A stretch of DNA of 52,541 nucleotides, the filler included, from Jimgerdemannia flammicorona (Eukaryota), in the NCBI GenBank assembly GCA_003990765.1. It is 2 parts of 2 records of this genome, joined end to end, with 100 filler letters (N's around TTAATTAATTAA, not from the genome) between each part and the next. Parts side by side here need not be neighbours in the genome. Positions count along the whole stretch, not along the records: positions 1 to 26,221 come from RBNJ01000750.1; positions 26,322 to 52,541 come from RBNJ01000751.1. The stretch is one strand, 5' to 3'. Positions 10,505 to 44,170 of the stretch are shown here, one piece after another. Below the pieces are notes generated by a model, which was not told the DNA's origin, did no database searches, and saw only the letters and a program-made list of their open reading frames with translations. A program made the translations under genes and the position numbers. Numbering within the stretch: the first letter of the stretch is position 1; the number at the start of each line of letters is the position of its first letter.

Positions 10505-10630
10505 TGAAAACTTTGGAGAGACATGCATGGCATTCACCAACATGTTCCATGTAGTATATTCGAATAGAATGAGGGCATTATCCACATGGTGCATAACCAT
10601 CTGCAATTCTCTTATACCAGTTTTCATCAT
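10505..10630 (-). other. C-P-H-x12-C-x2-C module in B1 (between dUTPase and protease)
   Basis: Manual translation DENWYKRIADGYAPCG*CPHSIRIYYMEHVGECHAC. Confidence 0.7.
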
Positions 10631-10669
10631 CTTCCTTCATAGTAGTGACCTTTTTACTGGGAGGTTTGT

Positions 10670-11090
10670 TGGTTGATCCAAACCCTTTCTTGCTATGGTC
10701 TGTCTGAGAGAGCTTGGGGACTTCTTCAATGGTGAGATCTTGACAGATTTCTTCAATGATTGCTTGGGCAATCCTTTGGCCTGTTTTGACTTCAAATGAG
10801 GTATCTCCAAAATTTCACAAGATGACATGGATTTTGCCAGTAAATCCTTGATCAACTACTCCTCCTCCTAGCCCAATGTTGAACTCTTTAGCTAGGCTGC
10901 TTCACTCAGCAAGGCAGATGTATATACCTTTGGGAGCTTGCATTGTAATTCCTATTCACACTGTACCATTGGTACTTGGTGGAATGGTGAGGTCTTGGCT
11001 GCTGTAGAGGTCATATCTAGCATCAGTTGGGTGGGCCTTAGTGGGGATGGTAGTCTTGTACTATATCTTCTATACTTTGATGACATTCTC
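10670..11090 (-). pseudogene. dUTPase domain of B1
   Basis: Manual translation PTKAHPTDARYDLY...SSLAK...GGVVDQGFTGKI...GQRIAQ...KKGFGST (dUTPase motifs I-V). Confidence 0.88.
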
Positions 11091-11099
11091 AGGGTTCTT

Positions 11100-13000
11100 C
11101 TTTCTTAGACCTTCTCTAATAACAGTAATGTTCTGGTTACTGGATTCATCTAATCTGTTTCTCTTCTCAAGGCATTTGAATGAGATGTATCCTGCCTTCT
11201 TACAGATGAAATACAATTCTTTTTTATGAAGCTGCTTCTTTTCATCCTCAGTGAGAGGTCTAGGTCCTCTGGGGTTTCACTGGTTCTTTTGATCATTCCT
11301 TTGATCATATCTTTGGTCATTCCTTTGATCATTTCTCCTGGTTGGGTTTCTCCTATCTTGGTTATCCTTCTTGTGTTCTTGATTTCATAGAGCTTGTACA
11401 GCAAGGATTTCACAGGCTCTTCTTTGTACTTGGGCAAAGCACTATGAGTAGTGGGGACATCCTTGGGGAAGACCTTGTTCCTTGATCTTCTGGGTGAGCC
11501 AGTCTGGTAGAGCTGCAAAAAGATGGTTAGCTCTGGTACTATTGATGGCCAAATTGTTCTCCTGGTAGGTAAGTCCAACAGTTTTGAGATAGGCATTCAT
11601 TCTGGTAGCAAAGGTCTCTAGATCCTCCTTGCCATTCTTATGGAACTTTATCTGGAACAGTTTGTTCCAGGTTTCTTATATATAGGCTGCATTTCAGAAT
11701 TTGGTCAGTAGCAAGATCTTGAGTCCTGGGCCTGCTTCATAGTCATCCCAACCTGGTCTATTGTTGGCAGGTACTTATCCATTGACTTGAGGGCAGTCTT
11801 CCCAGATTACTAGGTGTTGTTCCAAGGTTTGCCAGAATTTGGCTACTGTTCCAGTGAAGAATGTGGCTACTGTTTCTACTTGTGCTGCTGATGTGGCAAA
11901 CAGCTATTGAAGGGTGTTGTTCTGGTTGTTGGTGAGCATTCCTATAGGTACTTGGTTGTTATTCCATTGGTTTGCTCAGTAGTCTGTATCAACTACATTG
12001 ATGAAGTTTTTAATGTTGCTGTTTTTTCCACTGAATGTTGGAATTCGCAAGGTCTTGGTTGGCTTGTTCTGTTCAGCAATCTGTCCTACTATCTCTGCTA
12101 GTACTGCTAGCTGGGTAGTCAGTACTGCAATATTGATATCTACCATTGTATTGACTATTGGTAGTAGACCTGTAGGGGTGGATTCTCCTGAAGATTGTTC
12201 TGCTTGGTAGAGTTGTGGTGCTGTGTGACTTGGAGTTACTTGATTCCCAGATATCAGATCAAAGAGTCCTGTGAGAGAGGGTAAACCAAACCTCTATATA
12301 GGTGGCTAAGTTAGTTCTGGGGTCTGATCTTCTTGACCTGTGGTTCTTTGATAAATTCCTAGGTCTGCTGTTCCTAGTTGGCTATCATCAGACTGGTAAT
12401 CTGTAGAGTCTTTGTCTGACTCTCTTTCCTGATGAGATAGTACATCCTTGTACTGACTAGGTCCTTCAAAGAGGATATCAGTCTCTGGCTAGGTAGATGG
12501 GCCTGCTCCTTGTTCAGCAGTAGAAGATGGTTGGCCTGCTTGCTCGTTCTCATATCTGGTTATGGTAGAGACATAGTATACAACTAGCCTATAGTAGAGG
12601 GAGGTCTTGGTAGGAGTATGATGATATCTGTCAGAGGCAATCCACTCGGCAGCTGCTTCTCTTGCAGCAGGGGGTGTGATATAATCTAGAAAATCCTGGG
12701 TGGCTGCAGCAGTAGATTCTGGAGTCCTAGTGGTTCCAATGTGTCCTCGGAGGAGTTTGTAGAACCTACAGCAGCTAACTATATTCCTAAGTCCTGGGTG
12801 GTAAGTCCTAAAGGTCTGGTATAGATTCTTGTAAGTCTGATCAATTACAAGCTGGTGGGTTCTTGGGTCTGTGGTTTCCTGGTACCACCTGATCCTAATG
12901 GTAAGAGCTTCTCTGGCTCTGTTTGAGGATCCACAGTTGATTCTGAGGATTACTCCTGTCTAAGGTTGGTCTTGTTCCAACTTCAGGAATATGTTCTCAG
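11100..13000 (-). pseudogene. gag: B1 gag with long N-terminal extension and decayed CCHC knuckle
   Basis: Knuckle YFICKKAGYISFKC near 11172-11220; capsid-like region ~11400-12050; N-terminal motif AAAEWIASDRYHHTPTKTSLY. Confidence 0.75.
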
Positions 13001-13023
13001 TACCTTCTTGGCTGGTAATCCGC

Positions 13024-13752
13024 TGCTATAACTCTCACTTCTACCCCTCTCTTATCCTTTGGATAATTAGGGAAGTAAGACTATTACTTAGAGACTTAGT
13101 ATACAAGAAGCCTTCAGTTTGAGGAAGTACTCGCTTATAAGTAGTTGTAGTAGTAGTACCTTCTGTTTCAAAGGTCTTTCTCTGGTGTGCCCTATTTTCA
13201 AGGGTCTTATTATTTGCTGTGCACAGACTGAATTTGCCTTGGAATTCAGGTTCAATGGGTTTACTTAAGTCTTTAGGGATTTATATATCAGTCTCAGTTC
13301 TGGCAGAAGTTAGCTAGGCTTCTGGAGTTTAGTCAGAAACACTAGAGTCACTTAGGTATCATTACTAAGACTCAGGGGAATGTGTGTGTGTGGAAGGGAC
13401 TTGATTCTTGTATCAAGGACTGAACTAAAACTGCTTTATTTTGGATGGAAACTGGGGGGTATTTATACAAGTTGGTCCATGATTTCTGACTAAGTATGAG
13501 TGACTAATTTGGTAACTATAATGAGGTTTGTGATCACAACCTTTGTCAGGTGGTTTTTGGCAAAAACAACTTTGTGATCAGGACCTCAATTACTAGGCAA
13601 TGATCAGCTGCTGTGGCCACACTTGCTGCGGCGCCGATTGTTGGGGATAAGCTGGATATCGTTTTTCGCGTCATTCGTATGCCGCGCTCGATCGTATGAT
13701 GACGTCATCGCTCGCCGGGTCACGTGATCGCTCGTCGCGCCTCGTTCTAACA
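13024..13752 (-). repeat. 5' LTR of B1 (729 bp)
   Basis: Direct repeat of 4722-5478; TATAAATA at 13460-13467; followed by TSD GGCTC. Confidence 0.95.
13698..13727. promoter_or_regulatory. CRE-like palindrome GATGACGTCATC (13698-13709) and E-box TCACGTGA (13720-13727) in U3
   Basis: Exact palindromes within the only CpG-dense patch of the window; binding not demonstrated. Confidence 0.5.
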
Positions 13753-13889
13753 GGCTCGAATATCCTGAAGAAATACCACATTATACCTCCTAACCTTCAG
13801 CTAACGAAATAGATATCTTCACTTCTCTCCATTATATAGACCATTGATGTTTAGCAATAAGATATGTAGACTATTCATCATCATTAATA

Positions 13890-15600
13890 AAAACATTTAA
13901 AGCTTCACTGAAATTACCAATACCTTTTCTGCCTAACTGTGGATTATTTCCTTTCATTCCTTGCAGATGGCTCTCCAGATATAGGCACCATTCACCCTGC
14001 TGCAGAAGATATCTACTCTCTCAGAGGCTACTTTCCTGATATTAGCCATCCAGGTCTCATCTACCTCATACCCTTCATTATCTAGAAGTGCTGCCACTAT
14101 TACTATTAATAGCTTTGACCTCTATAATGCAATATTGAGGAATCCTTCCCAAGTCTCCTGAGATCTATTAAACACATCCACTTCCTTGATATCCTCCTCT
14201 ACAAGTTTCTCAAGTACTGCCTGATATCAGTCATCAGCAGTTATCACCAGAGGTCCAGGGGTAGCAGGCCTTAGGGTTCTATTCAGCTCCTATAGCATCT
14301 CCCTGTCTGCCAATATATCAGAGGCCACATCCACCAGATCATTCTCCTCAACATCATTCTCCAGCTGTACCACCTTACCTGTTTCTGGATATTTCCAATG
14401 AAAATTCACTACTCTCACCATATAAACATCCTCCAACTGGATCTCAGGTACTATCTCAGTGATATCCTCAAAGCTCTCTTCACCTACCCCTTCACCAGTG
14501 TATGAGCTGAGTTCTCCACACCCACCAGTTGTGAAAAGGACACCTCGGCCATCTCTACCTCCTCCATCTGACTCTTGGCCATCTCTGCCCTCACTTCTTC
14601 CTCCATTTTTGTATTCTGGAGGACCATCTGCAGATGCTTCTAGTTTGCTCTCTACCACCTCTTCCTCCTTCCATCTGTTAGAATCCAGATCTAGTTCTTG
14701 GCAAACTCCTCCCATCTCCTCTTTCACAGTTCCTTTGTAGCCTCTCTCTCCTTCAGGGTAAGTAGTAATTCCTCCTCCTCCTACTCAGATCCTTTCCTTC
14801 TCCACACCTTGCATTCCTGCCCTCTAACACAAATTACCTCTGGCCAGTCCCTCCCTAGCTCTATGGCCTCCTTGCCCTCCAGCCTCACCATAATCTCACA
14901 GTTACTATTCCTCAGCTTAGTCCCCTCCCAGAACATAAATCTGAAGTTGACTATCTCACCAAAGCCTGTCAGTACCTCTGCCACTATCCCCTAGTCTTCT
15001 ATCTCCTGAGAGTCAGCAATCCTTCTACCACCAGATATACAGCATGTGGATCTCACCTCAGATATCTCACCATTTCAACCTTGATGCTCTTGACCACCAA
15101 CCCTTTCTCCAAGGCCTTCATCATCTCCTCCTCCTCTACAAAACCAATCTCCACTATCTCTACCAACAGAATAAACTTCAGAGACTCTGTGCTGGCAATC
15201 TCCTCACCCATTAGCTACAAAACCTCTCTGGCTGACAAACCCAGTCCCAGAAAGTTTGTCAAGATCACCCACATCAATACCAATTTGTAGAAAAAAGAAT
15301 GCACCACTAGTTCTCTAGAGCCAGCTACCATCATCACCTTCCCCTTACCTCCTGAGATACTGGTGATCACTCTACTAGCCCCAAGAAGCCCATCAGCAGT
15401 CCCTCTCCCAGCCACTGGCCCAGCCACTAGCCTAGTCTCAGAAATACCAGTTCTGGCTATCCCATCTCCAGACCCCTTCCCCTGGCAGTCACCTGACCTA
15501 TCATCTGACCAGTCACCTAACTCTCCCCACTGTCAACACTATGTCTCCCCTGCCCTACCCCCATGGGCCTAGCAGTAGTCCTCCTGCTCCCCATCATCAT
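13890..15600 (-). pseudogene. LINE b ORF1 (Tx1-like, RRM-like plus coiled-coil), decayed
   Basis: GFGEIVNFRFMFWEGTKLRNSNCEIMVRL, homologous to ORF1 of LINEs c and e; boundaries approximate. Confidence 0.7.
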
Positions 15601-15984
15601 ATATCAGTCTTCAATACCAGCAGACCTCCACTGATCACCTGTCCCTTCAGCAGCAGTACCAGCCCCTGCCACTGCTACAAAACTCTTGGGGAGGCCCAGA
15701 CCAGACCTCTTCCTCTCTAAGCACTCAGAGCTTGATGAACCTTGAGTTACCATTCAATGAAAACTCAATGGATTCAGATGAAACTTGTTGTAAATTATTG
15801 CCAGACTCCTGCCACACCTAGTACACCAGTGTAGACAAAGTGAAAACTTGAAAACATGTAAAAGATGTCTGTGTGGCTTAGCTTACTCTAAATAGTTTGA
15901 GCAAAAGAAGTCTCTCTCACTGGGCTCTTCTTCTTCACTGCTATACTGTCTGCTCTCAGAGCCTCCATCTCCATTAACAAGGTT

Positions 15985-17073
15985 ATGGACAAGGTTCTTC
16001 CTCCTCTCCCTCCTCCTGCTTTTATCCCTACTACTATCTCATTTGAGTCCTATGTCTTATCCACCATCCTTTCCCTCTCTCTAGACCTTTGTCTCTCTGG
16101 TCATCCACTCTTTTCTCAGTTCTAGTCAGTTCTTGCCCTCTCTGCCAAGAAGACTTATCTCTACCATGATATCAACATCATTGCTCTGCTTACTGTCTGC
16201 TACTCCATTCTCTCTGAGGCCCACTACCAAGCTCTCTCCAAAGAGGTTCACACTGCTACTACTGCCACCAAGCTTGCTACTACTAATGCTGCCACTGCTA
16301 CTGCTACCACTGCTTCTGCCTCCTTCTACTATGTCTGTACCTTTTTTGTGGCCCTCCCCTCCTCTTACTTCACAGATGTTGTCTCTTTTTATGGCTTTGC
16401 CATCTAAGACATTCTCTCTGCTGCTGCCAATATTGATGCTGTTCATCACTTTCTCCTCACCAGCACCTCTTTTATTGCTCATCTTCATAAGCAGGAAATG
16501 TCATATACTATCACCACTGCTTGTATCACTACCACTGCTCCCCTGTCCACCTCCTCTGAGGTTTCAGTCTTTGAGGCTATCTGTGCTGAGGCTCATGCTG
16601 CCACTCATGCCAAGGTTCATTCCTTTACCACTACTGCTGCCAAGGCCCCTGCCAAGACCCCCGCCAAGCCTAACAAGACTTCATCAGTCTCTTCTCAGTC
16701 TCCCTCCCCTGTTAAGGCCTTCTCCTCCATTTCCCCTATCCCCAAGTATGGCTGCCAACTTGGTTTTCACCCTGTTAGAGCCTGGCCTTGTGCTGTCTGC
16801 TCTGGTAACCTCCACTATACCTACTGGCACCTGGTCAAGTCCATCTGCCCCCATAGTGGTGTCTCTCATACTGCTGCCCCTTTGGCTGCTCACTCACCTT
16901 CTGCCTCCTCTGCCAGCTCCTCCTCCACCTCCTCTACCTGTACTCCTGAATGTAAGGGCTATACAAAAGCCTGTGGCCACAAGGTCTGGCACTCTGACAG
17001 AGTGTGCTCCAACTCATTGGGCTTGCTGCCTTCAAAAAAAGTCAGAGAGAAGGGGAAGGCCTCTCACTTTTAA
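15985..17073 (+). pseudogene. PLE ORF1 (Ala/Thr-rich, Cys/His clusters near the C-terminus)
   Basis: One frame from ATG 15985 through ORF 16498-17073 with two internal stops; CQLGFH..WPCAVC..H and CTPEC..CGH..WH..C. Confidence 0.55.
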
Positions 17074-17186
17074 ACGTCTTCCTGATGTAGTTCTCCCCTA
17101 GTGTCTCTATTTATTCTCAGATTCCATTGTTGCTTCTGGTGTGCTCTGAGTGATTCCTCATGCTGTCTCCTCTTCATCTTTCCTAA

Positions 17187-18800
17187 TTGCTTGTCTTAAA
17201 CTTTCAGATTTATTCTTCTTTTGGAACACTTTTGTCTCTTCCTTTTTCTTCAGCTGACTGCTCCCTTTCTTCTCTTCAAGTCTTTGTCTTATCCTTGAGT
17301 CCTCACTTCATTTTTCCTGCAACTCTCTCACAATTCTCCCTCACCAATCTGGCTTGTCTTACATGCTTTCATCATGCTCTTGACCTTGCCATCTTCTTTG
17401 AGGATTATGGTGAGATACTCTCTCACTATTATATTCCTAACAATTAGGTCCCCCCTCCCAATGTCTCTTCACACTGCATATTCCTTGACATGGCTTGCTC
17501 ACTGTCCATTCCTGGATGCACTCACTCTTGCTTAGTTTCAGACCATACCATACATATTGCACTTAAATCAGTCAAGCAATTGTCTTTGTATTTACTCATA
17601 GTTATTGATAAGAATTAGAGTTTTGTACTTATTTCTAAGTCACTCTATCTTGATGGCCTTTCTGCCCTCCTTTGAGCTATGGCTTACAAGCTAAGTGCTC
17701 TTGAATTGGATGAGATTCTCACTCTTCTTTGGGTTTCTCTGGCTCATGCCAGATTGCTTTTGGATTCTTCTTTTGTGAACCATATTTTTAACTTCTTCCA
17801 GAACTCTTTGTCCTTGCCAGACATTTGTCTTCTGGTTTTCTATACTCTTCCTAAAGTCCACAAGCCTACTTTGGCTTGGCATCCCATTATGGCTGCTTTT
17901 AGCTCATCCACCACTGAGATTTCAAAGTAGTTATTCTGCTTCTTCCTCTCTTAGATAGCTCTTCTTCAACACCATCTTAGGCCTGAGTATACAATTCTTC
18001 ATGATACTCAGGAGCTTGCCCTTCTCTGCTCTACTATTGTACCTATTTACCATTTTTCTCATTTGGTCTCTGGTGACTTCTCTTCTTTCTATACTACTAT
18101 TCATTTTGATAAGATCAATGATTGTCTTCATTTCTTGGGTTCTATTGTTTTTCCTTTAGATTCTCTAGTTTTGCTAGCTTCTATTGTTGAGCTTATACTC
18201 CTCATCTGCAGCTCTAACTATTTTGAGTCAACTCTTGGCTCTTTTTACCAGACTTCTGGTATTGCCATGAGAATGAATTATGCTCCCACTCTTATCAACC
18301 TTGTTGGCCTGGCTCATGAACTTCATGTGATACATAATCCTTCTTCACCTCTTTCTATTATGTTTCAGGCTGGAGATATCTTCTTTCACCAATATATTGA
18401 TGACTTTATTGTCCTCACTATTGCTGGCATTGATATCCCCAGTGTGTTCTGTGGTATCTACCCTCTCTATTATTCTATTACTTGGGTGTATAATATGATC
18501 AGTATTCTCTTTTTGGATCTTTCTATTTCTCTTTCTCCCTTCCAAACTATTGTTTATTCTTATTTCTCTCATTCTTAATAGTTCCCTGACTTCTGTTCCA
18601 ATTATCCTTATCACACTCTTTTTAAATATATTTATAGTAAGGTTTGTTGTCTTGTACTATACTGCTCTTATCATTCTAATTGAGTGTCTGCTGTTTGGGT
18701 CCTTGGCAACTTTATGGTCCATCATTATACCTACCTTATTTCTATCATTCATGAATTGATTCTGTTGAATGGTCTGTTGTCTGCTCTTTCCTTCTCTCTC
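17187..18800 (+). pseudogene. PLE reverse transcriptase
   Basis: VLSLSPHFIFP; YTLPKVHKP..WHPI; GDFSSFYTTI; NYFE..FYQTSGIAM..YAP; QYIDD; FLDL. Confidence 0.88.
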
Positions 18801-19149
18801 TCCATTATCTCTCTTTTCTTCCCTCTCTCTTCCCTTATCCTCTCTATACCCCCTCTTCATTCCCACCCCTGATTCTTATTATACTATTCAATCATACTCC
18901 CTGGGTTGCACAATGCCCTAATACTGTTCTATGCTCTTCTCTTTCTTACTATAGACTTTTGTCTCTTTCTTGATGCTCTCTGATTACTCATTCACATCTT
19001 CCTTCTATTTCTTCTTTAATCCATTACTCTCATTTTGCATTTTTGTCACCTTTGGGTATCTCTGGCTCTGCTGGAGAGGATTAAAAAACATCCTTGTCCC
19101 CTTTAGGGTCTCATGCTTACTCTGGGGTCTCAGCCTTACTCTGCTCTCC

Positions 19150-19476
19150 TTCACTGCTTTTGGCCCCTTACTTTACTTAGACTCACTGTGACTCACTCTA
19201 TTTCAGCCTCACCCCTTGCTTGCACTCACCTCTCTGAGGTCTGCAGATGTTTTTTAATCTTGATTTAGATTTGTTTTGTTTGTGTTTGTTTGTGATTTTT
19301 ATCCTACAACTGGGATTGACTTTCTCTTTATCTCTACTTATCTCTAGTAGTTATATAGTTCCTAATTTAGTTTGCCCTAAGTTGTGGCACATCTTCTCTT
19401 TTGAGATATCATATTTTGTATATAAGGATTGTATTTTTATGTGGCAATAAATAGCTGATGCATTTTCAGTTATGTT

Positions 19477-19477
<1 letters not shown>
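19150..19477 (+). repeat. PLE terminal direct repeat copy 2, left part
   Basis: Aligns with ~643-972. Confidence 0.8.
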
Positions 19478-19557
<80 letters not shown>

Positions 19558-19598
19558 TTTCTTGGACTCTGCCATTTATTACCAGTCTATTAATAAGT

Positions 19599-25520: not shown

Positions 25521-26211
25521 ACTGCCATTCAAATGAAGAGACTCTCTTGTAAAAAAGAAAACACCTACTTCATCTATACTATACAAGAAGTTATCAAAGC
25601 TTCAAGTAGTCCAATCCTATCAGAAGCTCAAGAACTGTTTGAGAAATTCCAAAATATATTTCAGGATCCCCAAGGACTTCCACCTAAGTACCAAATCCAC
25701 CTAAGTACCAAATCCAACATGGAATTAACCTTATTTCAGATTCTAAACCTCCATACAAGAGTATCTACCAACTGACCCAACCCAAACTCAAGACCCTCAA
25801 GGATGAGCTGATCAAACTATTAACCTAAAGATATGTTGAACCCAGCCACTCTCCATTTGGAGCCCCCATTCTGTTTGTCAAGAAGAAGGATGGCTCTCTG
25901 CAAATATATATTGACTACAGAGCTCTCAATAAGATCACTATCAAGAATCAATATGTCTTACCTAGGATTGATGAGTTGTTATATCAGATCTTCAAGGCCA
26001 AGACCTTTACTCTACTAGACTTATGAAATAATTACCACTAGATTCTCATTGATGAGAAGGACATTGAGAAGACAGCTTTCTGAATATGGTTTAGACACTA
26101 CCAGTTCTGAGTCATGTCTTTTGGTTTGACCAATATACTAGTAACATTTCAATATCTAATGAATGACATCTTTGGATCACTGCTCAATATTTGTGTCCTG
26201 ATATATATTGA
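25521..26211 (+). mobile_element. Gypsy family B fragment (PR-RT linker to YID), probably part of copy B2
   Basis: Reverse-complement match to ~9270-9950; contains a 17-bp tandem duplication at 25680-25713. Confidence 0.85.
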
Positions 26212-26221
26212 TTTTTTTTTT

Positions 26222-26321
26222 NNNNNNNNNNNNNNNNNNNNNNNNNNNNNNNNNNNNNNNNNNNNTTAATTAATTAANNNNNNNNNNNNNNNNNNNNNNN
26301 NNNNNNNNNNNNNNNNNNNNN
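26222..26321. other. Assembly gap with artificial TTAATTAATTAA linker (26266-26277)
   Basis: N runs flanking a six-frame-stop 12-mer. Confidence 0.97.
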
Positions 26322-27875
26322 CCCCCTCGGGGCGCCCCCCCCCACTATCTCTTCTTTGTGAAAGACTACTTTGTCGAACACTATCCCCACCCTCCCACCA
26401 CTCTGCTCACAGATCTTCATCACCAAACCTTGACGTCATCCCCCCTGAAGTCCCCCACCCACCCACCATCCGGTCAGTAGATCCCCCACCAGCTCCTCCT
26501 ACCATAATACCTTCTCACGTAGCCCCAACTGCTGCCTCTCCTCAAATACGAAAAGCAATGTCCTGCCAGTCCCACCCATACTGCTAACACCCATCCTACA
26601 GTGAGCCAACTATCCCCCACCCCACCCACAAGCCGAGATTTTAAGTCCTCCCAGCGACCCCACTCCCCCACCAGCCGATGCTCAACACCCAGTCTATCCC
26701 TGATCTCAGCCCAAAATTCCCCCAAGACCTCACACTCTCCCAGCCAATGTTCTGGCATCTGAACATAACCCCCAGCTTGCCCAACATCATAACACTCCTT
26801 GCAGTCAAATCATCCACCCTCTACTAAATGCCCTGAGTGGAAATTCAGCATGACATTCCTCCGCAACATTCTCCACCACACTACCCAGTACTTGGGAGGG
26901 AGCCACCACCATACCTCAGCACTCCAAGACCAGATGCCTGCCCAGTCCCACTCCTCTCCAATTCCAACTGCCTGCCAGCCACTTGGCCAAAGGTCCCGAC
27001 CAAACCCCTGCTGACACTCCACTCCCTCCCCAATATCGAATGCAGTCAAGGGAGTACCCCCCAGGAGCAGTCTATCCCAACACCACATATTAGGCCCCCA
27101 CGCCACCTCCCCCTCATCACCCTACCAGTGCAGGCCAATTCAGTGGGCACCCTCACCCACTCCCCACCAAAACCCCTTGAACTGCAGTCTCCGAACTCCA
27201 TTCAGCCCCACCAAAGAGAGCAGATCCCCAGAGGACCCTCGAGGGGATATTCACATCTCCCATACCTTCTGCAGCAGAGGCACCCAACCTCCACCCTACA
27301 ATTCCACAGCTCTCTTCAGCCACCAGGCTCTCAAGCAGTGCAGCCTCTTAGGGAAATCCACCAGGCCAAGACCTCCCCTGACTACTGGTCTCACAAGAGT
27401 ATCCCAACTGACCTGGGACCTCCTCCCCGCCCAAATCCAATCCCTAGCCGCCTTCATTAGCTTCTTCACCACTCATGCTGAGAAGTCTAGGTGATATGCT
27501 ACATACCACAGCTTTGGGAACCAATATACATTCAGGATTGACACCTGCCCTGCTAGAGAGATATGGCAGCCTCCCCATCCTCGAAAGGCCTCCCCCCAAC
27601 TGTTCACCCTGCCCTCCCACCACACTCGTGGCAAGACAGAACCATATACAGAGAGAAAGATGCCCAGATACTGCACTACCTCACCAGTAGGGACAATTGT
27701 TCCAATGACGTCCCCACCCACTAACCCATTTCCTAGCACCATTGTCTCACACTTATGCCAGTTGAGTTTCGCCCCTGAATGAGCCTCATACCATTCCACA
27801 GTCTCCTGAAGTGCTGCTACATCCGCCACAGACCCAAGTCCAACCACCATATCATCAGCAAAGGCCTCCACCTTT
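26322..27875 (-). mobile_element. L1/Tx1-like LINE copy d, 5'-truncated ORF2 3' part (relatively CpG-retaining)
   Basis: EAFADDMVVG...YLGIFL...ISLAGQVSILNVYWFPKLWY; PEHWLGEC; the T run at 26212-26221 may be its tail. Confidence 0.88.
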
Positions 27876-32290: not shown

Positions 32291-32965
32291 TATGATATCT
32301 ATAAGAATTTCAAGAACAGAAGGTCAATACTACTTTTGAACAGCTAGCTGAAGTTCCTATCTTTAGATAGCAGTTGAGAGTAAAACTTGTAACTACTGTC
32401 AAGAACCAAGAGGTCAAGATCATAGAAGCTCACAATGTATAAGAAGATAAATAAGAAGACTCAGATAAAGAATCTGAAGATTAGTGTAAGATATCAGCCT
32501 ATACTCCATATTGGATTGAAGATTGTATCTTTAATATCATTATTGATACTAGTACTAGAGAATGCCTCATGAGCAAGAAGACAATTAACTGCCTAGGCTG
32601 GGACATTGAAGAATCCATCAAAATGATCTATATTATAGCAGATACATAGTATATGAGCTACTCCCCTAAGTAAAATTTGAGAAGTCTCTATCAAGATAAG
32701 AGGAGCTACTATCTCAGTAGACATGATTGTTACAAGCACTACCAACTATAACATCCTTATTGACAATCAATGGCTTTACAAGGCCAAGACTGTCATTGAC
32801 CTCAATGTCCAGAAGATGCAGATCAACTATAGAGGAAAAAAGATATAAGTCTCTATCAATATCCACAAAGAAGTACTATCAGATATAGAGGAAGGAGATG
32901 AAGAGAACACAGAAGTCTTTATGTACTCAGTGTATAAGTACAAGAGCAAGACACCCAAGCTCATA

Positions 32966-33095
32966 GATGAGCAATAGTACAATAAGATCATCAATGACTA
33001 TACCTCTCAAGTAAGATATCCCCCATGGTACTAAGATGTACTGCTTGAAACACCTGAATAACTGCTGGTCCTATATCAGTGAAGTCAGGAAAATC
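32966..33095 (+). other. C-P-H-x12-C-x2-C module in C (between protease and dUTPase)
   Basis: DEQ*YNKIINDYTSQVRYPHGTKMYCLKHLNNCWSY; the first and last Cys appear as Tyr (TAT), consistent with TGT->TAT decay. Confidence 0.65.
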
Positions 33096-33204
33096 TGCCA
33101 ACAAAAGTATAAGCAAGAAGTCACTGAAGCAAAAAGAAAAGCCAAAAAAGATGACCAGTCTCCAGAGCTTCAAGCTGATAGTGATAATGAGGAGAAATAC
33201 GAAC

Positions 33205-33630
33205 TAGACATTACTCTTAAGGTCAAGAAGCTTCACCCTGAAGCCAAGATCCCAGAATACAAGACTGAAGAAGCTATAGGAATGAACCTTACCAGTATTT
33301 AAGATGCTATCCTCAAACCACAGACCACTACTCTACTTGACACTGGAATTGGAGTCAAGCTGCCAGAGAACTATACCAGAATTATCAAGACTAGGAGCAG
33401 TCTGGCTAAAAGCGAAATCCCAGTTGAAGGAGGAGTAATTGACCCTAATAATACTGATGAGATCTTCCTCATAGTCAGGAATCACAACCCCACCACCCCA
33501 TTTGAAGTCAAGAAGTATAACAGGATTGGACAGATGCTGATCCACAAAGTTAAGAAGCCCAAGATCACTGAAGCCATTGAACTTATCAAGACTAAGAGAA
33601 GTGAACAAGGCTTTAGATCTACTGGAAGAG
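33205..33630 (+). pseudogene. dUTPase domain of C
   Basis: LKVKKLHPEAKIP...TGIGVKLP...TRSSLAK..VEGGVIDP...RIGQML...RSEQGFRSTG. Confidence 0.9.
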
Positions 33631-36383
33631 GAGCCTATGCTACCACTAAGATTACTGAACTTGAGTACAAGAAAGACAAGGACCAGAATAAGTACACATA
33701 TACTATTGGAGAAAAATTTCTCCTAGAACAATATCTCAAGATCCTGTATTAGAATAAAGAAGTACTAACTATAGACTTCAGAGATATCTACAATCAAGAA
33801 CCCAAGTACTACTATAAAGTTAACACTAATAATACCAAGCCCATCTACCAGAAACCCAGACCTATACCACCTGTCTATAGAGAATGGCTGTGAGCAGAAC
33901 TCAAGGAAATGAAAGAAGCTGGAATTATCATACAAGCTATTAGCCCCTGGGTCTCACTTATTGTCCTTGTACCAAAGAAAGGATACAAGCCTGGAGAGTT
34001 TGCTCTAAGACTCTGTATTGATTACAGGAAGCTCAATGCAATTATCAAGAAGAATAGGCAGCCCTTGCCAAATATTCAAGAAATCTTTACCACTCTTGAA
34101 AGTAAAGCCAAATACTACACTATCTTGGATCTGTTCTCAGGCTTTCATCAGATTGGTCTCACTCAAGATACTAGTCAAAAATTAGCCTTCATCATATCTG
34201 ACACTACTTATGTTTACCTGCAAATACTATTTAGAATATATAATGTCCCAGCAAGTTTTCAGCAAATGATAAATGGAGTCTTTAGCAATAAGATTAGAAA
34301 ATGGCTCTTTGTCTATATTGATGATATGATCATCTTCAGCAATACTATATGGGAATATATCAACCATATACAGCTATGTAGCTCTCAAGAAGCTCAAGGA
34401 GCATGGCCTCGATATTAAGCCCAAGAGGTACAAGTTTGTAGCTCAGGAAATCACCTACCTAGAACACATCATCAACCAGACTGAAATTTACACAGACCCC
34501 AGATTGAGACTGTTGCAGCCTACCCAAGACTCAGAATAACTACAGAAGTCCACACCTTCCTTGAACTGGCCTCCTACTACAGTAGATTCATCAAAAGATA
34601 CTTTAATATTATAGTACCTATCTACAAGCTACTGAAGAAGACAACAAAATTTAAATAGACTAAGAAATATTAAGAAATCTTCAATAAACTCAAGACCAGG
34701 TTGACCCAAGCACCCATCCTCAGAAGACCAGATTGGAACCTAGAGTTCATCCTGCAGACAGATATAAGTATTATAAGACTTAGAGTAGTCCTAGCTCAGA
34801 AGAAAGATGGACATAAATATGTCATCTCCTATATAAGCTGAGATATCTATAGAGTAGAACAGAACTATGAGTAATGCAAGCTTGAATGCTCAGCAGTAGT
34901 TTAGACAGTAGATAAGTTCCACTACTACCTAGCTGAGAAATACTTCACTATCTAAACAAACTATTCCACTCTCACCTAACTATTCTACACTCTGAACTCC
35001 AAAGAAATATATGCTAGTTAGATCTACAGACTGTAAGAGTATGACTGTACTGTCAAGTACTGCTCAGGAAGAATCAATGCCAATACTGATACACTCTCAA
35101 GGATACTCTGAAATATTCCCATCAAGACTATTCAATATAAATAAGGAGCTATACTATGGATTAATCAGCTACCTTAGGCAGTGGAAGATGCCCAACTACT
35201 TCAAACCCTGGACTTCACTATTATCAACTAGACTTGAAAAAAATTTGAACTAGACAACACCATACTCAGAAAAGGTAGAAAGCTCATAATACCCAAATAC
35301 AAGAAGTATTAGGTAATGAAGAAAGCATATAAACAAGGACACCTTGAAGGAATCAATATATGACAAAGTAAGCAGAACTATGTAGTGGCCTAAGATAGAT
35401 GAAGACTGTGCCAATTTGTCAAAGGGTGTGACAAGTACTAAAAACAGAAACAAAATCAATAAGACCAGATATCTGGGTCATCAAGAATTGAGTCTATCCC
35501 CTTTTATCATATTGTAATAGATATCATTGGACCACTATCAGTAACACTATCAGGAAACTATTATATTATAGTTATCATAGACCTCTTTACTAAATAAATA
35601 GAAGTAAGAGTATTACAAGTATTCAATGCTCTCTTTATAGCCAACTTCCTGTACCAAGAAATCATCTGCTGTTACAAGATACTAAGACAAATCACTACAG
35701 ACTACAGTACAGAATTTATCAATAGATTCTATGAGATAATGTATTAGAAATATAAGATTCAGCATATCAAAACTACTGCATATCACTCTTAAGAAAATAG
35801 ACAGATAGGAAAAATCAATAAGACTCTCAAGAACATTCTGACAAAGATCTCAGACACATATGATAATTGGGATAACTATCTCCCAACTGCCCTCTCTGTC
35901 CTACAAGATATATAGTCACAGAGTATGTACTTTACCCCAAGAGAACTGCTCTTCAGAGAAGAAGATTCCAATGAAACCTCAGCTATAAATCTAGATCTAA
36001 CTTGGAGAAAGATTGACTCAGAAATCTGGAGACTACACCAAATCAGAAAGAAGACTGAAGATATATCATCAAGTCATAAGTGCTGATAAGGAAGAATGTA
36101 AAAAAGAATTACAAGACCCTAGAACTCATCCAAATTGAAGAAAAGGTCCTACTGTATCAAAATATAGTAGAAGTCTTATAGTTGCAAAAACTGGAGCCCA
36201 AATAGGAAGGACCCTTCTATATGTAAGATATCAAGAGAACTATCTTCTGGCTTAGAAAACTCTTAGTAACTATACTGCCCACCATAATATATAGGAATAG
36301 ACTCAAGAAGTACCATGAACCGATATAAGAGAAGTAAAATATAATGATCACTCATGAGATTTTAGTCCACAAATCATAACAAT

Positions 36384-36900: not shown

Positions 36901-36945
36901 CAATCAAAGCTCACAGAAATAGTTCAAAAGACTTACTAAAAACAA

Positions 36946-37752
36946 ATGCCTGCTGCTCACTAAACCTCAAGGTCCAGAAACCACCAAGGCTCCTCAGTCC
37001 TGGAAAGGATGTTTCAAGACATCAGAAAAGCTATAAAGACCTATACAAGAAGGACTCCTAGCCTCAACCTGGGTGCTGGTAACCCTTATTATTATATTCT
37101 CTACTACTACAAAATAGAAACAAGGATCACTATCCCTACTGAATGTCTCTAGATATAGTAGAAATATAAAATAAAAAATCACCTCTGCCAGGAATTCCCT
37201 CAGACCAGTCCCTAAGAAATATAAGATATTACTTCTATGGATACATATGAAATAAAGATAGTAAAGAAGATTTAGCAGGTCTTCAGACATGTACTGTGAT
37301 CAATTTCCAACTTAGAGTATACTAGAATCTCAGACTTCAAGAAACTATTAATCTGCCATACCAATGTACTAGAGGCCATAGTGGCCACAGAAGTCCAGTC
37401 TACATCACTCTTAATAGTGATAAAGTAGAAGAATTCTGGAATCCCATCTTTCAGAACAATCTGGATCAATTTCTGCAAGGAATGATCTCAGTATTTCAAG
37501 GCCCCAGTATCTAGGTTAGATCTCTCCAAGATCCTACATTTGTCTCTTATTTTGTAAAAGAGAACCTCATAGACTAGAGACCCCCAGACCTTCTTGTTCT
37601 TCCTGCCACTGAATGTGATGATGTCATCAGTGATGACATCATCCCACATAATATATGTGAAATATATAAAATAGATGAAATATTCATAGATCTCATTTTC
37701 TTTAGTAGTAATGAAGATGAAGCCCCTATGGTCTGGAAAATTCTGCTCTAAG
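36946..37752 (+). pseudogene. Family C 3' accessory ORF, homologous to those of A and B
   Basis: LERMFQDIRKAI..SLNL...DITSMDTYEIKIVKKI.QVFRHVL.SISNLEY..SDFKKL...EFWNPIFQNNLDQFLQG; one frameshift near 37398. Confidence 0.7.
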
Positions 37753-38155
37753 TTCTTAGTAATACTGAAATCTACTAGTATCCTGAACTTATACAACCAT
37801 TTATACAGATATTTAAATTTATACTTACAACTGTAGTTTTCTATATTCTAGTATTTTATTTAGTTATTAGAATTTATATTTAGCTTTATAACTTATCAAT
37901 CATTGAATCATATTTTATATAAATATTCCTCTTATTTTCTTTGAAATAAAGTCAGTCAATTTTACTTATACTCAATTTCATATAAGTAATCTAAGAGATA
38001 ACAAGACAGTTTAAAGATAAGAAGTTTGAGGACTATAAGACCTTGAGAAGGTACTCCAATAAGAACTTGCTTATAACAAACTTATAGTTAGTCTAATAAA
38101 TATATCTTAAAGAGAATCTGATATAATTGAAGGACTCAGTAATCACTATATTACA

Positions 38156-38272
38156 CTAGGTATTATGAGATATTACTAAAGATTTATCTAAGAATACTTT
38201 ATTATCATAGCCTTACTGATTAGTCTGATCTACAAAGGAGTAAACATCAAGACTAAATAGACCCCTGAGTAT
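38156..38272 (+). mobile_element. Gypsy B2 RT C-terminal piece (left flank of the A insertion)
   Basis: Matches the reverse complement of ~8920-9035; continues at 48701. Confidence 0.85.
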
Positions 38273-38949
38273 TGTAAGAGGGTTGCTTTTTAGGGTAACC
38301 ATTACATAGTTCCGGAAAGGTTTTCTGGAAGTTCTAGATATTCTGGAAGACCATTTTCTTTATGGTCAAGATCAATTTCATATAGAGTATATCCTCTATG
38401 CTTATTGATTTCAAGATCAGGTTGACATCTCAACCAAAGTCCTTCTTCAGACTAGTTCTGGATGTTCAGGAATTCTGTATTTCAGGAAGTTCAAGAAACT
38501 AAGACCAGCTCAGTTGAATTGGCATATCGCTGTAGACAATACCCAATTAGGAAATTTCATGATGGGGTTAGGAGTAGGACCTAACGGGGAGTGGATTTAC
38601 TTAAGAGTGGTTTGTAGGTTATTTGAATGAGTTTATTTGCTATTCATGATATTGCTATACTAGGAGTAGTTGTGTGAAGGGATATTGTGGGGAAGTATTC
38701 AGGAATGTTCTTGTGTGTTCGAGTCTGAGATTCTGAGGTCTGGGGGTGGGGGTATTTATACTAGTGAGGGGCTATCTGAACTATGCTGAATATGGATGTA
38801 GCACTAAGTGCTTTGCTGAGTCAGAATGCAGTCACATAGTACAAGTGTGATCTGACATGTCAAAAGATCGTCTGGCTGCTGAGTCAGTTCACAGTCATGT
38901 TATATAAGGCTAATCTAACTATACTATGACTGCTAGGTTATTTATGAGT

Positions 38950-40047
38950 TTAGGCACTATCTGGGTAGTCCTTGATGACATCACTATTGATTGCATCATC
39001 TCTGATGAAGTAGTCATTCAGGAAAAGTGGTTCGCAGATTACTTCTTCTTGTTCACTGAAGTAATAATATATTGGAACTTCATCTCCATCCCACAAGATG
39101 GCATCATCTGTCTCATATACTGGATAAGGTGTTGGTGGGTGAAGGAGGGGTGCTTCATCTTCACTTTCATCGGATTTGCTGTCTGCATACCTTCTGTAGA
39201 TTACAGCACTATGAGTCACAGGGTTGTAGTAAGCTGGTGGCTGTAGTTCATATTGCTTGTACTAAGGTGGTGGAGTGGTTGGTTCAATCTCGAGGGTTGT
39301 CTGGAGGTACAGGTTGTGTTCTCTGGTCTCTTCATTGTAGTTGAAGTAATCAGGAGTGAATGTGGGTTAGTATTTGTGCCAGTGGTCATTGTCCCAATAA
39401 GTCTCATATGCCATTATGAATTGTTGTAAGTTCATTAGCAAGGTTGGTAGTGTGATCAGGGTTGGCAGAGATCCTTGGCTAGAGGTCATGTCAACATCAG
39501 AGAGATCATTGTCTTCTGCTTCATCTTCATCAAAGTAGATTATATCATAGATGTCCTTTATGGTATATCCAACTTGGGGCATTTGCAGGATATGATCATT
39601 GGGGTATGGGAAGGTTCTGTCTGTGGTTTTGATATACTCGAGGTACTTGTGGTTGAGTTCTTGTATCATATTATTGATTTGGCCATAGGACAGGGTAGCA
39701 ACCATTTCGCTGGTGGTAACTTGGAGGTGGGAAATAATGGTACTGTACTCATAGAAGAGTTCTCAATGTTTGCTGGCAATGAGCTTCTGGTGTTGAGACA
39801 TCTAGGTAATGTCTGTATCATGGTGGTGTTCAACCATGTCTTCCAGGAGGCAGCCAATCTGGTAGTAGCTTGAGATTTGTCCGATTTGGTGGGCCTTGCT
39901 AAGCATGTTCAGAGCATTCCATCAGGCTTCCATGAAGTAGAGGGGTGCTAGGCTATGGATATTCATGAGGGGTAGAGGGGGTGTGGCTCTGTTGACAATG
40001 GCATTCCAAATGTCAGTTCAGATACGGGTATAGATCTTGGTAGTCAT
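38950..40047 (-). pseudogene. LTR-encoded accessory ORF of A (365 aa), 3' LTR copy
   Basis: ORF-track pieces 39367-39705 and 38950-39219 are in frame with ATG 40047; the stop at 39367 is a sense codon in the other LTR. Confidence 0.8.
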
Positions 40048-40239
40048 GTTTGTATATTTGTAAGTTGTGGTTGTTGTTTGTTTTGGTTCTCTGATTTGAC
40101 ATGTCTTGGTGCTCGGTATATATGCATTTGGTCCTGATTGGTAAGATTCCGTTTGTGTAGATCTTGTGTTCTGTGATTTCATATTGACTCAGCTTTGTGT
40201 GCTGTGACTTTGGTTTGACTCAGCTTTATGATTAAGCAG

Positions 40240-40318
40240 GTGATTTCCAGATTTGTTCAGAGGTCGTGTGTGATTTCAGTGGCTTGTTCAGAGGGTGATG
40301 TGTAATTTCAGTGGCTTG
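40240..40318. repeat. Imperfect ~31-bp tandem repeat (about 2.5 copies) at the U3 start of the A LTR
   Basis: GTGATTTCAGTGGCTTGTTCAGAGG-like units; also at 48600-48678. Confidence 0.7.
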
Positions 40319-40335
40319 GGGGTTGTGCGCTTACA

Positions 40336-40349
40336 ACTCTCCCCTTCTT
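40336..40349 (-). other. Polypurine tract of A
   Basis: AAGAAGGGGAGAGT abutting the 3' LTR. Confidence 0.88.
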
Positions 40350-43300
40350 AGCTTTCGATGTCCTTGTCAGGGCCTTCTAATTTGTTCAGTGGTACAGGGA
40401 AAATAGGCTTGCTTTCTGTTTTGCCATTTTTCCAGAGGATCGGTATTCTTGTCTTGTTTTGCTGAGTTCTTGGTTTGGTTCGCAATAATTATAATGTTTG
40501 GGAGGATAATATATAGTATGTACCGATAGGTGCGAGAGTATTTGGTTCTTAGTTGTTTAAGGAATCATATTCCTGAACTAGGTCGGTAGCATTCTGGAGA
40601 TTGGTCTTCAGTTCCCAGGTTGCATCATGGATTGGATAACCTTTCCATTTGACAAGGTACTCAGGGTGGCTTTTGTTGCCATGTTTGTTGAGGATTTATT
40701 CAACTTCGTACTCTTCTTGATCATTAATAATGACAGGTGCAGGTAGTTTGGTAGTCCAGTTTGGAAATAGCTCATCATCATTCTCATTGTATCACTTGAG
40801 ACATTGAACATTAAAGACCGGGTGAATCTTAATGGTATCTGGTAGTGCCAATTTGTAGGAGGTTGGAGAGACTTATGCAATGACTTCAAATGGTCCAATG
40901 AATTTGCTGTTCAGCTTTGTGGATGGTCTATGCTTGAGGTTGTCAACTTAGTATCCTCTGATGTCCAGAAGAACATTTTCTCCAATATCAAAAGTTTCTT
41001 CTCGGCAGTGTTGGTTAACATACTGTGACTGTTGTTCTTGAGTTCATGATATATTCTCAATGGCAATCTGGCTTAGATTGTGCATTTGGAGTAAGAATTC
41101 TTCAACAGCTTCTACTGTGGAGGGTTCCTCAGTGGTTCAGATAAGTGTCAAAGGGGTGTTTGGGTTTTGTCCAGTGTTGGCGAAGAATGGGGTCATTCCG
41201 AGAGAGGCTTGCTTGCTATTGTTATAGGCAAACTCAACTGTAGTGAGGTGTTTATGCCAGTCATCTTGTCTATAGGAAACATAGTTCCTTAGCATTTGTT
41301 CCAGAGTTTGGTTCATTCTTTCAGTTTGGCCATCAGTTTCTGGGTGAAAGGCTGTGGATAGTACAAATTTTGTTCCAAGATGTGCATGGAGGGCTTTCCA
41401 AAAATGGCTGGTGAATTTTGGGTCTTGGTCACTAACAATGATCTTGGGAAGACCATAATAGTGGAAGATGTTATCAAACAAGAGTGTGGCTATGTCTGGT
41501 GCTGTTGCAATAGTGGTAGTAGGCACAAAGTGGGCTTGTTTGCTAAGATAGTCTATAAAGACAACAATTGCATCTTTCCCATTCTTGGTTCAGGGTAGTT
41601 GTACAATGAAGTCCATAGAGAATTGTTCCCAATTAGCAGATGGTACTGGGATAGGGTGAAGTAAGCCAGGTTTTGCTAGTGTTGAGGACTTGTTTTGTTG
41701 GCAGACATCACAGGAAGTAATGTAGGTTTTGAGCTGATCTGCCATGTGGGGCCAATAGAAGTTTCGAGAGATAACTTCATAACATTTATCAAATCCTAAA
41801 TGTCCAGCTGTAGGAGCATCATGACATTTGAATAAGATAGTCCTTTGGAGGTCTCGGTTGTTTGGGACATACAGTCTGTCTTTATAGTAGATAGCATTGT
41901 CCTTCAGTTGGTATTGATGATACTGTGTATACTTGTCAGCATTATCACTATTCAGGAATTCTTGCAGTGCTTGAGCTGCCTTATCATCGGCACATGCTGT
42001 GATAATTTGTTCTATGATGGAGTTTGTAACCAAGGTGAGAGTTTGGATAACCTCTTTGATTGGTGGTCTGGAGATTGCATCAGCAATAATTTTTTCCTTA
42101 CCAGGGCAGTACTGGATTTCATAGTCAAAGTTGGTGAGGACTTTCATCCATCTGGCTTACTTTCAAGAAAGGGTAGCCTGTGTCTTGATGTTGACTAATG
42201 ACTTGTAGTTGGTCAATACAGTAAAGTGAGTAGGGTTGCCATTTGATCAGAGTATCTACAATGGCTAGCATCTCCTTCTCATGAGTTGCATAGTTGATTT
42301 TGGCATCATTGAACTTGTGGAAGTGATAGGCCACAGGGTGTCCTTCTTGTATGAGTACTGCTCTAAGGGCTAGGTCAGAGACATTAGTGGTAACTTCATA
42401 TAGTAGTGCAGGGTTTGCCACTTGAAGTACTGGAGTGGTTATCAGGGCATCCTTTAGTGCTTGAAAGGCGGTATCTTACTCAGGTCCCCAAGTTACAAGA
42501 TTGTTGAAATCTTTCTCTTGTTTTATAGTCCAGGGTTGTTCTTGTTTCTTGCTATGGTTGGTCATTTGGGTGAGAGCAGTAGCAATTTTAGCAAAGTTGG
42601 CAACAAATCGCCTGTAATAGTTTGCTAATCCCAGGAATGACTGGAGGTCTTTCAGCTTCTTGGGTCTGGGCCAATCCTTGATTGCAGAGATTTTGCTGGG
42701 GTCTACTTTAATTCCATTTGGAGTGATAATGTGTCTAAGGAATTGAATTTCTTTCAGAAGAAATTCACACTTACTGAGTTTTGCAAAGAGTCGGTTTTCT
42801 CGGAGTTTCAGTAATACTAGTTCAAGGTGTTCAAGATGTTCCTCCAGGGTTTTGCTGAAGACTAGGATGTCGTCAATGTAGACAACAATGAATTTGTCCA
42901 GGTATGGATGCAGAATGGTATTCATTAATGTCTGGAAGGTTTCTGGAGCATTAGTTAAGCCGAAGGGCATAACCAGGAACTTGAAGTGTCCATAGCAAGT
43001 TTGGAAAGCTGTCTTGTAGATATCTTCTTCTTTCATAGCAATTTGCCAGTAACCATTTCGCAGATCAAAGGAGCTCATGAATTGTGGGTTGGTAAGTCTA
43101 TCGAATATTTCATCGATCCTCAGTAGTGGGCAACAGTTCTTGATAGTCTGTTCATTGAGATTGCAGTAGTCAATGCATATTTACAGGTCTCCTCCTTTCT
43201 TGACAACAAATAGGACTGGTGCACCATAAGGTGATACACTGGGTCTGATGAATTCTTATTCTAGGAGTTCATCAATTTCTTGCTTGAGTGCATCGATTTC

Positions 43301-44039
43301 TCTCAGAGACATGTGGTAGATTGACTTGAAGGCTGGTTTGGCATCTGGGATAGTCTTGATGACATGGTCTACTACTCATTTAGGGGATAGGCCTTTCAGG
43401 AGCTTCTTTGGGAATATATCTCGAAATTTCTAGAGTAATGGTCTGACACAGTTGTTAACTTTGGAAAAATCCTCTTCAGAATTCTCAGGTTCTCCTTTGG
43501 ATAGGCGGATAGAGATGGCGAAGAGTGGGCATTTCTTGGCCAATTTCTTAAATTGTAGCTTATTGATGTGGGTGATCTTTGGTCCAGGGTCACCAGAATT
43601 AAGTGGGTCTTTTTCGCCTTGCAGTTTGAAGTTGTGGCATCCCTTCTTGATGGTCAGAGAATGGTTTACCCAATCAATCATGGGGTTCTCTTGTTTTAAC
43701 CATGGAGTTCCAAGGATGATTTTATTGTCAGGAAGTGGTACGATTTGAAGGGTAACATATACTCGGTAGTCAACAATTCGGAGGGGTAGATTGCAAACTT
43801 CTTTGCTAATAACATGTGAGGTTCCATCAGCTGTAGCAACTGCTTGAGTTTGCTGTACTGGAGAGGTAAAGACCTTGAGTCTGTTGGCTGTCTCTTCATT
43901 GATGAAGTTGCCTGAGGCACTACTATCTATCATAATCTTGACAGGTGCTTGGTTGACAAAAGCCTTAAGTGTGAGCAGTTTGTCTGATCCAATGGTGGTA
44001 ATTTCAGTTGTGGGAGCTTTCCTTCTGTTGGTTCTTCTT

Positions 44040-44170
44040 TGAGCCAGTTCATTGATACAAAAGAAGCAATCATCAATCTTTCGGGAAGAGTACATTCCAA
44101 TGCCATGGGGACATCAGCCACTTGGTACATATCCATCTTCGATTTTCTTGTAGAATTGTTCTTCTTTGCT
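44040..44170 (-). other. C-P-H-x12-C-x2-C module in A (between dUTPase and protease)
   Basis: EEQFYKKIEDGYVPSG*CPHGIGMYSSRKIDDCFFC. Confidence 0.75.

Follow-up and report, generated by a model that had tools for sequence, protein, structure and literature searches.

We have identified a small Cys/His module that lies beside the dUTPase of three decayed Ty3/gypsy retrotransposons, here called A, B and C, in a 52,541-bp stretch of the Jimgerdemannia flammicorona genome (GenBank assembly GCA_003990765.1; parts of records RBNJ01000750.1 and RBNJ01000751.1 joined end to end), hereafter the window. The module is ~45 aa long, follows the pattern [FW]Y-x2-[IL]-x2-G-[YF]-x-P-x-G-[RK]-C-P-H-x12-C-x2-C, and in retroelements always occupies the position between the dUTPase and the retropepsin (PR), whichever of the two comes first. 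We interpret it as an undescribed, independently folding Cys/His mini-domain of ~45-50 aa in the Pol region of one chromovirus-type group of Ty3/gypsy elements with a trimeric-type dUTPase, where it would serve as an accessory handle of the dUTPase; we give this reading a probability of roughly 0.45. The descriptive part of the account is held with high confidence, and the handle mechanism is our leading guess among several. An original prediction, made from the sequence alone, had noted the module in the three elements and proposed a zinc-binding domain functionally coupled to the dUTPase or to particle packaging; its observation is confirmed here and its interpretation is partly supported.

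Domain orders were obtained from Pfam scans of stop-to-stop open reading frames (ORFs), long terminal repeat (LTR) pairs and direct translation. The window (42% G+C) is a pile of decayed retroelements in which no open frame exceeds 338 codons, and three of its Ty3/gypsy elements carry a dUTPase. Element A reads gag(CCHC)-dUTPase-module-PR-reverse transcriptase (RT)-RNase H-integrase-chromodomain (Pfam and translation), element B reads dUTPase-module-PR-RT-RNase H-integrase-SH3_Tf2-1 (Pfam), and element C reads PR-module-dUTPase-RT-RNase H (Pfam and translation). Translations and profile matches place the module where it had been predicted in each of them (Table 1). The permuted order, dUTPase-module-PR in A and B versus PR-module-dUTPase in C, is borne out by the Pfam scans and by three metagenomic proteins, each encoded in a single intact ORF: P0159 (gag-CCHC, dUTPase, module, PR), P0161 of the A family (dUTPase, module, PR, RT) and P0157 of the C family (PR, module, dUTPase, RT). 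A and B belong to different families, since they are 31% identical over 386 aa. A chromodomain (PF00385, 6.4e-14) is present in A, only SH3_Tf2-1 is found in B, and the integrase end of C was not recovered; no LTR pair for C was found in the window. Motif 5 of the dUTPase (RG-x-x-GFGS[ST]) is visible as GFGSS or GFGST beside the module, and the gag CCHC knuckle of A lies ~45 aa upstream of its dUTPase.

That all three window copies of the module are broken might suggest that their similarity is due to chance, or that the module is a functionless relic. The regular expression C.H.{12}C..C, applied in six frames, matched A and B only, and 200 shuffles gave a mean of 0.08 matches per window. A profile built from seven database modules only, all of them from dUTPase-first proteins, scored 79.8 bits for B, 68.9 bits for A and 19.8 bits for the second half of C (independent E-value 2e-7), and matched nothing else in the whole window. 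Reading C through its frameshift raised the score to 40.3 bits (E 1.4e-9 at Z=105,000), and the intact C-family protein P0157, in which the full motif is present, scored 85.4 bits against the same profile. The scores of C and P0157 therefore identify C as a true homologue in the opposite order. Given profile E-values of 1e-9 to 1e-26, intact ORFs from several sources with invariant Cys positions, and a confident AlphaFold2 fold, chance or relic status is hardly credible and is refuted as far as sequence evidence allows.

The decay of the window copies qualifies the claim that all three share an identical motif and spacing, which holds for A and B. In A, an in-frame TGA (44114-44116) lies at a conserved Arg between the G and C-P-H, and in B a TAA (10578-10580) occupies the same position, which is Arg, Lys or His in every intact relative; the original motif had a wildcard here before the first Cys and did not mention the stops. 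C has Arg (AGA) at this position. Its own lesions are a TAG (32975-32977) in place of the Trp of its relatives, a +1 frameshift within a run of five C (33019-33023) and the replacement of both outer Cys by Tyr (TAT), such that the literal C-P-H and C-x2-C are absent and the spacing equals that of A and B only once the frameshift is read through. A metagenome contig of the A family (L002; 80% nucleotide identity to A) has a TGA at the same codon (~445-447), and A and L002 differ by 172 transitions and 93 transversions over 1338 aligned bases. The stops of A, B and L002 look like recurrent C-to-T decay at a CGA codon, with shared descent also possible for A and L002. An alternative genetic code or recoding was considered and rejected: dropping stop codons lengthens ORFs only moderately, as decay predicts, and as the stops within the module fall at codons for Arg or Trp in intact relatives, we read them as decay. 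The window copies, with their stops, frameshift and lost Cys, are dead, so any function is to be sought in intact relatives, P0157, P0159 and P0161 among them.

An alignment of 14 intact sequences shows little or no variation at P20, C24, P25, H26, M30, Y31, C39 and C42, nor at E8 and Y11 upstream. C24, C39 and C42 are invariant, and H26 is found in at least 90% of the sequences. A middle Cys and His (M-Y-C-S-E-H) occur in some families and are absent from intact members of the A and P0159 families, and the constant ligand set is consequently C-x-H-x12-C-x2-C. Between C-type and A/B-type proteins the module is 40-63% identical (45 columns), versus 30-41% for the dUTPase. Over the element families as a whole, it is conserved (40-63% identity) no less than the dUTPase next to it (30-49%). 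AlphaFold2 modelling of the module alone from the 14-sequence alignment, a structure prediction that had been proposed from the outset, gave a confident fold with a mean predicted local distance difference test (pLDDT) score of 90.2, comprising a helix (7-15), a two-stranded hairpin (22-23/29-30) and two further helices (33-38 and 40-61). These secondary-structure elements recur in the module (437-486) of a full-length P0159 model, where 10-residue block means are 59-78 for the module and the flanks (402-436 and 487-537) fall below 50. Linkers on both sides of the module are predicted to be disordered and acidic, and in these models the module looks like an independent bead on flexible linkers. 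It may be a structural zinc finger with a single CHCC site in a treble-clef-like arrangement, with which the ligand columns and the modelled helix-hairpin-helix-helix order are compatible.

The gag CCHC knuckle has the spacing C-x2-C-x4-H-x4-C, and the integrase HHCC finger the spacing H-x3-7-H-x23-32-C-x2-C. Both, like the module, are small Cys/His motifs of the same polyprotein, and the spacing of the module, C-x-H-x12-C-x2-C, differs from either. None of 10 modules matched the corresponding families (PF00098 and PF17921) at E<=10, in keeping with the distinction drawn originally, and the true integrase fingers do match PF17921, that of A at 5e-21 and that of B at 4e-17. A known domain was not found by profile, PDB-sequence or fold searches. 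The same 10 modules had no Pfam family match, only scattered weak hits (best 0.001-0.02, in 1-3 of the 10), among them DUF1451 (3/10, best 0.021) and zf-C5HC2 (1/10, 0.0048). There were 0 matches to PDB sequences at E<=10. Neither Foldseek, with a best E of 3.8, nor VIA-align, whose best Z over 48161 chains was 4.0, returned anything above noise, in searches that have little power for so short a domain.

Relatives were sought with HMMER, using the dUTPase-module-PR stretch of A as the query. This gave 24,059 matches at E<=0.001, mostly plain dUTPases, and among the best 150 of these the module was present in seven (P0003, P0006, P0009, P0012, P0029, P0037 and P0047). A module-only profile search returned 14 strong matches, of which 13 contain PF00692. 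From a pattern scan of metagenome contigs (30 matches, 4 passed), L002 and L003 were added; L004 and L005, with identical 120-aa windows around the match, had 20 aa in common and lacked C-x2-C, and were judged to be chance matches. The same judgement was made for viral contigs (14 pattern matches, one of which passed tblastn), where only RCPHGIGMY was in common. Word-indexed searches with the A module against proteins of 747-2130 aa gave no match, and with the P0003 module against proteins of 176-560 aa recovered only itself. The best ESM Atlas score for the module was 0.80, which provided no lead, and P0163 had no usable match there. For sequencing runs, no RNA run was listed and soil or root metagenome runs shared <=0.20 of words, giving no evidence on expression or habitat. 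In total, 19 module-bearing sequences in ~11 lineages were assembled, metagenomic relatives among them. The dUTPase comes first in 15 and the module in two, and the remaining two (P0163 and L003) have neither a dUTPase nor a PR nearby. The dUTPase is thus adjacent in 17 of the 19, in both orders. In each of 13 dUTPase-first proteins motif 5 is 11-33 aa from the module, and in the three proteins where it is visible the PR active site lies 43-56 aa beyond the module's C-x2-C.

P0163 and L003 have modules at 42-56% identity, and they share a W-C-[ST]-C-x-E-C motif ~45 aa downstream of it. Also present in L003 (2-613, + strand) are a CQECKRRKKRC stretch and a repeat, W..Y.KE...GW..D.Q..W.R, for which Pfam gives a match to SCNM1_acidic (PF15805) at 3.5e-7 and 30.2 bits, the cutoff being 27. 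In five module-free, PR-first dUTPase proteins (P0027, P0028, P0030, P0041 and P0065), PR is immediately followed by a conserved Cys pair of another kind, C-x3-C (e.g. S-[DEP]-x-C-x3-C).

It is hypothesized that the four Cys/His residues hold one structural zinc ion in a CHCC site, as the conserved columns and the model suggest, with the first two ligands on the knuckle of the hairpin and the last two where the long helix of the predicted fold begins. After PR processing the module would stay on the dUTPase, attached to its C-terminus in A/B-type elements and to its N-terminus in C-type elements. From that position it would act as a zinc-dependent docking or nucleic-acid-binding handle that keeps the dUTPase at the reverse-transcription complex, by analogy with the fused nucleocapsid (NC) knuckles of betaretroviral NC-dUTPase.

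Several observations weigh against this hypothesis. We infer zinc binding from the ligand pattern and the confident AlphaFold2 model, which itself holds no metal. The net charge of the module ranges from -1 to +9 across the 14 sequences, which makes a nucleic-acid-binding role less than obvious. Coupling to the dUTPase, as originally proposed, agrees with the adjacency found in both orders, and occurrence without a dUTPase is limited to P0163 and L003 (2/19), where neither dUTPase nor PR is found in 77-110 aa of upstream sequence. The converse association fails: of the 24 proteins among the best 150 HMMER matches that combine a dUTPase with a PR, 22 (10 dUTPase-first and 12 PR-first) lack the module, so the dUTPase does not need it. 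Moreover, PR is the other neighbour of the module in all ten retroelement sequences with both flanks visible (A, B, C, P0003, P0006, P0009, P0159, P0161, L002 and P0157), and adjacency therefore cannot separate coupling to dUTPase from coupling to PR. Sampling was also biased, in that the first query held a dUTPase and the databases are poor in transposon ORFs. Finally, a single origin of the dUTPase-module pair is not evident from the dUTPase trees described below, which are unresolved at depth. Given the constant presence of PR on the other side, the absence of the module from most dUTPase elements and its different context in two sequences, three rival readings stand beside the dUTPase handle.

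The invariable presence of PR would be explained if the module belonged to PR as a zinc-stabilized flank that regulates its dimerization, activation or order of processing. In A/B-type elements it would then precede PR and in C-type elements follow it, with the dUTPase inserted on its far side. The C-x3-C pair of other PR-first dUTPase elements indicates that Cys-containing extensions of PR do occur in the group. We nonetheless regard this reading as unlikely: the module-only searches produced no case of module and PR without dUTPase, in dUTPase-first elements fewer residues separate the module from the dUTPase than from the PR active site, the module changes sides of PR between the two types, and P0163 and L003 have the module and no PR.

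Its exact position between the two enzymes in either order, and the disordered acidic linkers predicted on both flanks, would equally suit a passive, zinc-stapled spacer bead that parts the trimer-forming dUTPase from the dimer-forming PR, with cleavage sites in the linkers and no partner of its own. A spacer should not require conservation that equals or exceeds that of the enzyme and includes surface-type positions ([FW]Y and DGY-x-P-x-GR). The 22 module-free proteins link both domains without such a bead, and P0163 and L003 carry the module without either domain, all of which renders a pure spacer improbable.

A further reading starts from P0163 and L003, whose related modules, with the shared downstream motif, lie in another context. 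The module could be an independent mobile zinc finger, derived from or common to a gene or transposon ORF of this kind, that acts on a host factor (in targeting, import or evasion of silencing), its closeness to the dUTPase being accidental. The module lies on opposite sides of the dUTPase in the two element types, an arrangement that simple duplication or deletion does not yield, and neither of two dUTPase trees joined the C-type with the A/B-type sequences. These were a quick tree of 87 rows, in which every second "other" hit was kept, and a careful tree of 46 rows, in which every third was kept and P0155, P0015 and P0040 were dropped; a coverage filter excluded seven module-bearing partial dUTPases (P0006, P0037, P0047, P0158, P0160, P0161 and P0162). 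By the approximately unbiased (AU) test, a single clade that unites all 9 module-linked dUTPases was not rejected (p 0.89). The log-likelihood of the constrained tree exceeded that of the quick free tree by 39 units, mainly a sign that the free search was poor. The other context is moreover known from just two of the 19 sequences, both on short contigs of 1122 and 1597 nt, and L003, which contains two in-frame stops, may itself derive from a B-like element, since its resemblance to B extends beyond the module (PPxxxxGW). Overall, we think an independent finger quite unlikely.

A permuted domain order alone is not new. In published work on fungal chromoviruses, the dUTPase of Postia placenta elements is found at the Pol N-terminus, in the PR-RT interval or at the Pol C-terminus, and independent acquisitions of dUTPase are suggested (PMC2864245). 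PosPlaTy3-3, -4 and -5 of P. placenta, elements of Phanerochaete chrysosporium and Tmt1 of Tuber are chromodomain-type gypsy elements with a dUTPase, as is element A, and between them cover both window orders; the portion of that article available to us mentions no Cys/His module beside their dUTPases (PMC2864245). In Mason-Pfizer monkey virus (MPMV), the NC domains of NC-dUTPase are described as binding oligonucleotide and adopting the symmetry of the trimer (PMC1802613). The likeness is that a zinc-type Cys/His domain, for which zinc binding is predicted in our case, is covalently placed beside a trimeric-type dUTPase between gag and PR, and that elements A and B and P0159 have a gag CCHC knuckle ~45 aa before the dUTPase. 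MPMV has an ordinary CCHC nucleocapsid N-terminal to the dUTPase, whereas the present module is an additional CHCC motif of other spacing that lies on the PR side and on either flank of the dUTPase; the one is also a vertebrate retrovirus and the other an LTR retrotransposon. Juno LTR retrotransposons of bdelloid rotifers are likewise Ty3/gypsy-like and have a dUTPase between PR and RT with an adjoining "extra Zn knuckle" (PMC5408684). There the knuckle follows the dUTPase, whereas in C and P0157, which have the same PR-dUTPase-RT order, the module precedes it. No published description of the module was found in a search of the literature on retroelement dUTPases that covered subscription papers in part. 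What is new here is the module; zinc knuckles beside retroelement dUTPases and variable placement of the dUTPase are already in print.

It is conceivable, although on balance doubtful, that the module is the founding member of a zinc-finger family, so far undescribed, whose dedicated partner is the retroelement dUTPase. It would have been kept beside the enzyme while the order of dUTPase and PR was swapped, by rearrangement or by a second acquisition, and would give the enzyme a zinc-dependent hold on the replication complex. Alongside NC-dUTPase and the Juno knuckle it would then exemplify a recurrent, convergent design of a dUTPase plus a private zinc module. Why some retroelements carry a dUTPase is only partly understood, and a conserved module that tracks the dUTPase through a swap in domain order would, if the handle reading is correct, offer a way into how the enzyme is held at reverse transcription. 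The module would add a small domain family to the models used for transposon annotation; it is a modest architectural detail that leaves the general picture of LTR retrotransposons unchanged, and no new kind of system.

Table 1. Positions of elements A, B and C and their domains in the window (an asterisk within a sequence marks a stop codon)
Element	Feature	Position	Strand	Basis or detail
A	Whole element	38272-48696	-	LTR pair, 2.07 kb each
A	5' LTR	46632-48696	-	Pairs with 38272-40336; 2067 bp, 92.2% identical
A	3' LTR	38272-40336	-	LTR pair
A	gag CCHC zinc knuckle	44684-44725	-	CFYC*KTGHMASAC, one in-frame stop; regular expression, translation
A	dUTPase (PF00692)	44198-44578	-	ORF 44117-44710, residues 45-171, E 7.5e-33
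A	Module	44018-44176	-	TMSKEEQFYKKIEDGYVPSG*CPHGIGMYSSRKIDDCFFCINEL...; profile match 9.3e-23
A	PR	43640-43987	-	RVP_2 7.6e-11
A	PR active-site region	43904-43936	-	IMIDSSASGNF; translation
A	RT	42479-43180	-	Pfam; within 40552-43180
A	RNase H	42128-42475	-	Pfam; within 40552-43180
A	Integrase (H2C2 + rve)	41140-42156	-	Pfam
A	Chromodomain	40552-40695	-	Pfam
B	Whole element	4726-13675	-	LTR pair 4726-5385 / 13028-13675; 660 bp, 90.5% identical
B	dUTPase, decayed	10581-11045	-	C-terminal part 10581-10814 = PF00692, 1.9e-8; tblastn 9915-11045, 4e-47
B	Module	10482-10643	-	TMKEDDENWYKRIADGYAPCG*CPHSIRIYYMEHVGECHACLSKVF...; profile match 3.6e-26
B	PR	9585-10394	-	LLDSGATGNY at 10284-10295; Pfam, translation
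B	RT	9204-9581	-	Pfam
B	RNase H	8592-8930	-	Pfam
B	Integrase	7822-8250	-	Pfam; within 7081-10394
B	SH3_Tf2-1	7081-7344	-	Pfam; within 7081-10394
C	PR active-site region	32533-32562	+	NIIIDTSTRE; Pfam, translation
C	PR, C-terminal part	32681-32845	+	Pfam, translation
C	Module	32957-33119	+	KLIDEQ*YNKIINDYTSQVRYPHGTKMYCLKHLNNCWSYISEVRKICQQ; 40.3 bits against a profile of A/B-type modules only
C	dUTPase	33201-33749	+	Directly 3' of the module; Pfam 8.1e-17
C	RT	33894-34415	+	Pfam
C	RNase H	34674-34838	+	Pfam

Other retroelement remains were observed in the window. A fourth gypsy fragment (48718-52523, + strand) is B-like, being 75-81% identical to the RNase H, integrase and LTR part of B, and as it starts 22 bp after the LTR of A, a nested insertion is suggested. 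A B-like RT fragment (25522-26212, + strand) lies beside two 44-N gaps (26222-26265 and 26278-26321). Long poly-T runs at 1065-1133 and 19479-19555 (poly-A on the minus strand) adjoin 320-bp repeats that are 82% identical (655-975 and 19163-19481), pointing to two copies of a non-LTR retroelement with a poly(A) tail. The base counts of the two strands are strongly asymmetric (T 16364 versus A 13829; C 12839 versus G 9421), probably reflecting the orientation of purine-rich retroelement coding strands. Further RT fragments are located at 2529-2918 and 27476-27874, both on the minus strand.

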